Source of the DNA: Escherichia coli
GTDB taxonomy: Bacteria; Pseudomonadota; Gammaproteobacteria; Enterobacterales; Enterobacteriaceae
DNA length: 64,000 nucleotides
NCBI RefSeq assembly: GCF_003334815.1
Contig: NZ_QOWO01000008.1
Direction: 5' to 3' (one strand)
Part shown: piece by piece, positions 24,572 through 24,908 of the stretch
How the letters are laid out: each line of letters starts with the position of its first letter
Position numbering within the stretch: position 1 is the stretch's first letter
Notes under the pieces: model-generated
The model's database searches: none
Told to the model about the DNA's origin: nothing
What the model saw: the letters and a program-made list of their open reading frames with translations, nothing else
Made by a program: the position numbers and the translations under genes

Positions 24572-24908
24572 GTCATTCTCCTTAAGTTAACTAACCCGGT
24601 ACTTAAGCCAGGGTATACTTGTAATTTTCTTACGGTGCACTGTACTGCTTTTACGAGCTTGCGAAAACTGTAAACGCTTATCCACCCGTGCGATTACGGG
24701 AAAAGCGCGCAAAGTGCGGCAAAACTGATAAAAAAATCATCGTTTTCCATTGGGTAAAAATCTGACACTGATCATGTTATGAAAAAAAATAACAACTTTT
24801 TTATCTGCTTTTGTCATTAACACGGCACACAGGCGTAATATCTGACAAAACTGCATTTCGATTTCTTTCAGTGCGGAAATCGTCATTACCCGTGAGTCTC
24901 TTTACATC

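Follow-up and report, generated by a model that had tools for sequence, protein, structure and literature searches.

The 337-bp spacer between the divergently transcribed genes zwf and hexR (yebK) of Escherichia coli is, with a probability of about 85%, a shared control region of the two genes that has already been characterised in this species. Our analysis supports the presence of both a HexR operator and a SoxS/MarA/Rob box (soxbox) at the places where published work puts or predicts them. Both elements are already found in the literature or in regulon databases, and in this respect the region holds nothing new. The significance is modest and consists mostly of a tidier annotation; an operator at zwf had already been predicted, and binding of YebK to the spacer had been shown in vitro. 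What can be given here is an exact coordinate for the E. coli HexR operator, over the presumed zwf start site, together with the observation that, in E. coli, an otherwise perfect palindrome is fixed in a slightly degenerate form. An A-rich block on the hexR side is better conserved than the operators, and is the only item that may be worth a separate look.

We propose that zwf is transcribed from a weak sigma-70 promoter (TTTTCG and TACAGT, with a start at ~24633), which would be bracketed by two regulator sites. The monomeric activators SoxS, MarA and Rob bind at 24675–24694 and bring in RNA polymerase by way of its alpha C-terminal domains, and a HexR dimer on 24620–24634 (about −1 to +14) would block polymerase binding, open-complex formation or promoter escape. 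The soxbox of zwf is a textbook activator site, and an operator just downstream of the −10 element occupies the classical position of a repressor.

Genes and features of the zwf–hexR locus

The window, which is the whole stretch of 64,000 nucleotides analysed, shares 100% identity with E. coli K-12 MG1655 around zwf–hexR, and the zwf–hexR stretch was found in all 5426 of 5426 complete E. coli genomes. The hexR product matches the NCBIfam model PRK11302 (“transcriptional regulator HexR”) with 565.6 bits against a cut-off of 296, and models of the SIS family also match its C-terminal half; the cognate RpiR-type regulator (HTH + SIS) encoded in the genome is HexR. The start codon of zwf is the complement of 24569–24571 and the ATG of hexR lies at 24909, so the spacer extends over 24572–24908. 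Its length of 337 bp, between zwf on the minus strand and hexR on the plus strand, had been given correctly in the first-pass annotation, as judged from the start codons and the list of open reading frames (ORFs). The RefSeq record of the region contains the same genes without any regulatory features. The features discussed below are collected in Table 1.

Table 1. Coordinates of genes and of observed or proposed regulatory features in and around the zwf–hexR spacer
Feature	Position	Strand	Basis and remarks
eda	20372–21013	minus	ORF list; NCBIfam model far above curated cut-off; RefSeq
edd	21050–22861	minus	ORF list; NCBIfam model far above curated cut-off; RefSeq
zwf CDS, glucose-6-phosphate dehydrogenase, 491 aa	23096–24571	minus	ORF list; NCBIfam TIGR00871, 682.8 bits; RefSeq
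zwf Shine-Dalgarno AGGAG	24578–24582	minus	sequence; 6 nt before ATG
Conserved inverted repeat in zwf 5'UTR (CCTGG-N8-CCAGG type)	24592–24615	minus	core pairs 24608–24612 with 24595–24599
HexR operator TGTAATTTTCTTACG, 15-bp pseudo-palindrome	24620–24634		motif and conservation; about −1 to +14 of the zwf promoter
zwf transcription start (G), approximate	24633	minus	presumed from earlier work; fits −10 position; 62-nt leader
zwf −10 hexamer TACAGT	24639–24644	minus	sequence; Serratia and Pectobacterium have TACATT instead
Weak zwf −35 hexamer TTTTCG	24662–24667	minus	inferred from sequence and published geometry; 17 bp from −10
SoxS/MarA/Rob box (soxbox/marbox) ATCGCACGGGTGGATAAGCG	24675–24694	minus	forward orientation, GCAC distal to promoter
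Ultra-conserved A-rich block TAAAAATCTGACACTGATCATGTTATGAAAAAAAATAACAAC	24755–24796	plus	conservation; upstream of hexR
Candidate hexR −10 hexamer TAATAT	24836–24841	plus	inferred; TATATT in most genera, conserved across the order
Conserved inverted repeat CGATTTCt...gGAAATCG in presumed hexR 5'UTR	24859–24882	plus	covariation
hexR (yebK) CDS, 289-aa RpiR-family regulator	24909–25778	plus	ORF list; NCBIfam; RefSeq

The HexR operator over the presumed zwf start

The operator core TGTAATTTTCTTACG occupies 24620–24634, within the longer string CTTGTAATTTTCTTACGG at 24618–24635. The first-pass annotation had singled out this string at 24617–24634 and likened it to TGTA-N8-TACA with an imperfect second half. 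The string is real, and it is a HexR-type site with an imperfect second half; its position, however, had been set 1 nt too low, and the half-sites are arranged as TGTA-N7-TACg rather than with an N8 spacer. N7 is the canonical published spacing of the HexR dyad. The second half reads cTTACg compared to ATTACA. Against TGTAAT-N3-ATTACA, which has a TGT-N9-ACA core, 10 of the 12 specified positions agree, and both mismatches fall in the right half.

Matches to TGTAATNNNATTACA with at most two mismatches occur four times in the 64-kb window, compared to 1.95 expected from shuffled sequences, which corresponds to ~0.01 expected in the 337-bp spacer. Two further matches with two mismatches to the dyad, TCTAATTAAATTACT and TGTAAGCGTTTTACA, lie at 46395–46413 and 30623–30637, the second of them inside znuA; they score at most 9.9 bits with the matrix described next, and are presumed to be chance matches. 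A weight matrix was built from 35 distinct orthologous operators outside Escherichia, with a maximum of 29 bits. The scan bore out the proposed HexR site in the spacer, since 24620–24634 scores 21.4 bits and the next best match in the window only 10.3 bits, with the reservation that common ancestry ties the E. coli site to the operators from which the matrix was made, so that the two are not independent. The runner-up is the Zur-type palindrome of znuA/znuC: GTGTGATATTATAACAT, at 30872–30890 between the divergent genes znuA (29908–30840, minus) and znuC (30919–31674, plus), looks like the Zur operator of these zinc-uptake genes.

The matrix scan gave no second canonical HexR site in the E. coli spacer, where the best secondary score is 7.4 bits, and none near edd or pykA in the window. 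A candidate second site TGTACTGCTTTTACG at 24641–24655, located 21 bp from the first, was rejected: it has three mismatches, overlaps the −10 hexamer TACAGT and does not appear among the window's eight top matrix scores, which puts it below 3.9 bits. Its conservation is explained by the overlap with TACAGT.

For comparison across the order, a HexR protein scan with one genome per species yielded 80 loci of Enterobacterales, ranging from Escherichia to Serratia, Pectobacterium, Rahnella and Pantoea. The divergent order of zwf and hexR is kept in 79 of the 80, with spacers of 330–534 bp, and each of these 79 spacers has a site of the TGTAAT-N3-ATTACA type at the orthologous place. The perfect palindrome TGTAATTTTATTACA is present in 43 of the 79, the exact E. 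coli variant TGTAATTTTCTTACG is found again in nine other loci, and single variants (C10 or G15) occur in 17 further loci. The distance from the operator to the TGTACT anchor, which marks the −10 element of zwf, is 21 bp in 66 spacers, 22 bp in 11 and 20 bp in one. In a 20-genus alignment, the operator ranks second in conservation among the 15-mers of the spacer, with a mean column identity of 0.947 compared to a spacer mean of 0.692. Together with its flanks (41 bp in total) it shows no variation across 5407 of 5426 E. coli genomes, which indicates that the imperfect right half is fixed in this species. Position, symmetry and the phylogenetic footprint support the reading of 24620–24634 as a real HexR operator. 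The E. coli copy can be described as a slightly degenerate form (A10C, A15G) of TGTAATTTTATTACA, and because of this degeneracy repression may be weaker in E. coli.

Two kinds of variation were seen among the orthologous spacers. Three Rahnella spacers have a second HexR-type site, TGTAATTTTATGACA, at spacer position 218 and nearer to hexR, with one mismatch; degenerate counterparts are found in three loci of Serratia, Pectobacterium and Pantoea. Among the 79 orthologous spacers, this type of second site is absent from E. coli and the other Enterobacteriaceae, and its distribution suggests that autoregulation of hexR may differ between families. In two Kluyvera loci, an ERIC/IRU-like insertion of ~150 bp (…CACCCCAGTCACGTACTCATGTACGCTCCAGGGGATTC…) sits at spacer positions ~20–190, between the zwf ATG and the operator; it makes the zwf leader longer and leaves operator and promoter intact.

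Published work on HexR agrees with this placement. In an electrophoretic mobility shift assay (EMSA), purified E. coli YebK (HexR) shifted a “yebK promoter” fragment and 3 mM KDPG reversed the shift, and genetic manipulation of eda and edd in the same paper was consistent with the KDPG effect; the authors stated the target genes of YebK as unknown, and read the binding as autoregulation. Comparative genomics describes E. coli HexR as a KDPG-responsive local repressor of glucose-6-phosphate dehydrogenase. A Vibrio study gives the RegPrecise HexR motif as TGTAATTAAATTACA and reports an increased activity of the zwf promoter in a hexR deletion. A review from 2025 on how zwf is regulated names SoxS, MarA, Rob, Cra and FNR, and its covered passages are silent on HexR. 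The HexR–zwf link in E. coli seems to be a known one that has been too little used. A literature search returned no mapping of the HexR contact to 24620–24634, no E. coli hexR mutant with derepressed zwf, and no ChIP-exo or SELEX data for E. coli HexR; a text search of the literature with the operator and box sequences gave no matches. As 24620–24634 is the only canonical HexR site in the spacer, it is likely that YebK bound this segment in the EMSA and that loss of HexR in E. coli would derepress zwf.

The operator has its closest known counterparts in other HexR-type systems. The zwf/hexR operators of Pseudomonas putida and P. fluorescens belong to regulators of the same RpiR-type (HTH + SIS) family and stand in the same divergent arrangement; there HexR represses zwf, and the zwf/hexR intergenic region has TTGT-N7-8-ACAA sites, with the same TGT...ACA dyad, the same 7-nt core spacing and the same ligand, KDPG. 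The half-sites are longer and more defined in Enterobacteria (TGTAAT/ATTACA) than in Pseudomonas. Moreover, HexR of Pseudomonas also controls edd, glk and gap-1, whereas the E. coli regulon appears to be reduced to zwf. The motif TGTAATTAAATTACA of RegPrecise and Leyn et al. (2011) for Vibrio and Shewanella is likewise a 15-bp palindrome with identical half-sites and zwf as a target; compared to it, the E. coli copy has the two mismatches in the right half, and its centre is TTT. HexR acts globally in Shewanella, whereas its role in E. coli is that of a local regulator. RccR, a paralogue of HexR in Pseudomonas, uses two types of operators with the same half-sites, 15 bp and 28 bp in length.

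Two other explanations would deprive the E. coli site of its role as an operator. It might be a decaying relic without useful HexR binding, which would leave SoxS/MarA/Rob, growth rate, Cra and FNR as the sole controls of zwf. Such a relic would fit the two right-half mismatches, set against a palindrome that is intact in 43 of 79 relatives, the omission of HexR from the regulators in the covered passages of the 2025 review, and the result that neither the rest of the spacer nor the surroundings of edd and pykA contain another canonical site. However, TGTAATTTTCTTACG recurs in nine other loci and its single variants in 17 more, from which it follows that positions 10 and 15 of the operator are tolerated rather than decaying; operator and flanks are unchanged throughout 5407 of 5426 E. 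coli genomes, and YebK shifts DNA of a spacer whose only canonical site is 24620–24634. We consider decay quite improbable. Conservation might also reflect another function, either as the initially transcribed sequence or discriminator of zwf or as a small RNA hairpin at the 5' terminus, given that the site lies at the extreme 5' end of the zwf transcript and that RNAalifold gives a 4-bp hairpin on it. That hairpin, however, comprises four A/U-rich pairs; its consensus energy is −0.66 kcal/mol, and the pairs are all invariant, without covariation. The conserved positions are the exact half-sites of a motif that was defined independently for HexR in other orders, and the variation within the site (A/C at 10, A/G at 15) breaks the symmetry without a compensating change. 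A function of this kind is highly improbable.

A third explanation keeps the operator and changes its target: the same site would serve also, or mainly, the autoregulation of hexR, via looping or via an undetected hexR promoter near the operator. It follows the interpretation of the EMSA authors, and regulators of the HexR family are reportedly autoregulatory, as stated in the EMSA paper with reference to Leyn 2011. The second site of Rahnella nearer to hexR, with a single mismatch, and its degenerate forms in Serratia, Pantoea and Pectobacterium point the same way. In E. coli, however, the operator is 275 bp away from the ATG of hexR and ~200 bp from 24836–24841, where the hexR side has its only conserved −10-like element; neither the sequence nor a sigma-70 scan makes a plus-strand promoter evident at the operator, and the best secondary site in the spacer stays at 7.4 bits. 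The E. coli sequence supports autoregulation poorly, and we regard this explanation as unlikely, with repression of zwf by HexR as the preferred reading.

Promoter, soxbox and leader of zwf

The box ATCGCACGGGTGGATAAGCG, which we take to be identical to the published zwf soxbox, was placed at 24675–24694 on the minus strand. Read along this strand, ATCGCACGGGTGGATAAGCG (24694 to 24675) is followed by TTTACAG (7 bp, 24668–24674), the −35 hexamer TTTTCG (24667 to 24662), a 17-bp spacer and the −10 hexamer TACAGT (24644 to 24639), and 5 nt separate the latter from the start G at 24633. This G is presumably the start reported by Rowley & Wolf (1991). It agrees with the −10 element at 24639–24644. 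With the start at 24633, the soxbox covers −42 to −61, and its upstream end at −61 fits the published promoter scaffold of −62 to +13. A generic sigma-70 scan gave no match at the −35 hexamer TTTTCG (24662–24667). The block 24639–24653 has a mean column identity of 0.917, and the TGTACT anchor is present in 78 of 80 spacers.

The first-pass annotation had expected a SoxS/MarA/Rob box in the spacer, without a confident placement by eye, and the box was located as described, 7 bp upstream of the −35 hexamer as in the published promoter. ATCGCACGGGTGGATAAGCG has three mismatches to the asymmetric 20-bp mar/sox consensus AYNGCACNNWNNRYYAAAYN, in which site A (GCAC) and an A-rich site B are spaced by ~10 bp; in ATCGCACGGGTGGATAAGCG, site A is exact and site B reads TAAG. 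The consensus match itself is ATCGCACGGGTGGATAAGC, running from 24694 to 24676 on the minus strand. The scan proposed for such boxes thus finds a match but is uninformative, because matches with up to three mismatches number 130 in the window compared to 139 expected, and a match alone proves nothing. For this reason, the placement of the soxbox rests on geometry and conservation. The cryo-EM paper on SoxS describes the zwf soxbox as lying 7 bp upstream of a “non-optimal −35 element” in a micF-like orientation, with GCAC and CAAA as recognition elements and a zwf scaffold of −62 to +13. Binding and activation by SoxS at zwf are established by the cryo-EM complex of SoxS, RNA polymerase and zwf DNA and by in vitro transcription, and are also given in the covered part of the review. 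The promoter in the class I (class I*) SoxS complex is the same as the zwf promoter analysed here, without any difference in E. coli. Its class of soxbox is a 20-bp asymmetric box in forward orientation, with GCAC distal and a poor −35 element at a distance of 7 bp.

Of 78 spacers, 36 have the GCAC element exactly at the E. coli offset; they come from Escherichia, Citrobacter, Kosakonia, Enterobacter, Lelliottia, Leclercia, Phytobacter, Pseudescherichia and Siccibacter. The element is absent from this place in Klebsiella (one locus), Raoultella (one locus), Kluyvera (four loci), Serratia and Pectobacterium, and in two subspecies of Salmonella it is degenerate and reads TCAC or TTAC. This distribution indicates that the soxbox is lineage-restricted, whereas the HexR operator is found order-wide. 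Control of zwf by SoxS and MarA may be specific to certain lineages, or may act via another site in other genera.

Between the HexR operator and the Shine-Dalgarno sequence, the zwf leader contains a conserved inverted repeat (24592–24615). In an alignment of 25 sequences, 73.9% of the cells pair and five of the eight pairs are changed on both sides, compared to 25–48% for controls with slid partners; this gives moderate support for a probable RNA hairpin. The region of the Shine-Dalgarno sequence, TCATTCTCCT, is nearly invariant across 20 genera.

Elements upstream of hexR

The most conserved element of the spacer, above both operators, is the A-rich block at 24755–24796, and its 15-mer 24779–24793 reaches the highest mean column identity of all (0.99). 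The block can be written as xxGAC-N4-GATCAtGTwATG-A8. A strict pattern for it matches 62 of 80 spacers, which comprise those of the 79 loci and that of the window, and in nearly all cases the match lies 134–151 bp before the hexR ATG; a diverged form is found in Serratia, Pectobacterium, Rahnella and Pantoea. From the end of the A-run to the −10-like hexamer of hexR, hand counts give 46–47 bp in E. coli, Serratia, Rahnella and Pantoea, i.e. across four families; the sequence in between drifts freely despite the fixed distance. The locus of the block is unique in E. coli genomes and is not a repeated element.

Several identities of the block were considered and rejected. A small ORF (ATG AAA AAA AAY AAC...) would lack its ATG in Pectobacterium, Rahnella and Pantoea; a Shine-Dalgarno sequence is missing, and conservation does not extend downstream. 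A sigma-70 promoter of the form CTGACA-17-AAAAAT is unlikely, as the final T of its −10 element is C in almost all other genera. The block, which reads TGTTAT-N8-ATAACA in E. coli, fails as a long-linker or non-canonical HexR site like those of RccR because the half-sites are not conserved: the right half is ACAACA in other genera, and Serratia, Rahnella and Pantoea no longer have the TGTAAT half. An Rfam search matched no family and returned only a spurious miRNA (E = 0.44).

Scans of the spacer with the consensus sequences of FNR, CRP, Cra, IHF, GntR and KdgR gave nothing above chance. The best dyads of the FNR type (TTGAT-N4-ATCAA) and CRP type (TGTGA-N6-TCACA) in the block lie at 24762–24775 and 24761–24776, with three mismatches each; in the spacer, such dyads are not convincingly more frequent than by chance (four compared to 3.8 expected for FNR, and four compared to 2.0 for CRP). 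An FNR ChIP-chip study reports a peak labelled zwf/yebK, which falls at ~24817 in the window, 49 bp away from the weak FNR-like dyad of the block. The coordinate offset for this peak was set by locating the FNR motif that the same paper gives for pykA, at 25699–25722. This published motif upstream of pykA, ATAACTTGAAGCGGGTCAAAGAAG, is situated inside the 3' end of hexR.

The block could, as a tentative suggestion from its conservation, bind a factor that so far has no known connection with hexR, and serve as an upstream activator site or as an architectural site with an A-tract on which the alpha-CTD would dock. Our best guess is an upstream activator or architectural site that would belong to an activator-dependent hexR promoter. 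Given the nearby ChIP-chip peak, a protein of the FNR/CRP family is one candidate binder. If true, the synthesis of the KDPG-sensing repressor itself would be under a second physiological signal.

Transcription of hexR is predicted to start near 24848, downstream of the candidate −10 hexamer. A second inverted repeat (24859–24882) would follow in the leader, ~30–50 nt before the hexR ATG. Here 88.2% of the cells pair and five of the eight pairs are changed on both sides, compared to 29–52% for the slid-partner controls, and many of the one-sided changes are compatible with G-U pairing on the plus strand; the repeat is probably a leader hairpin. RNAalifold, when run unprompted, predicted neither of the two 5'UTR hairpins, and the support for both comes from explicitly named structures. 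Immediately upstream of the coding sequence (24892–24911), (A/G)TGAG is invariant at a distance of 12–15 nt from the hexR ATG. The E. coli sequence GTG AGT CTC TTT ACA TCA TGA would make an upstream ORF of six codons, the stop of which overlaps the hexR start (ATGA). Since this frame is not conserved in Salmonella or Klebsiella, (A/G)TGAG may be only a distant element resembling a Shine-Dalgarno sequence.
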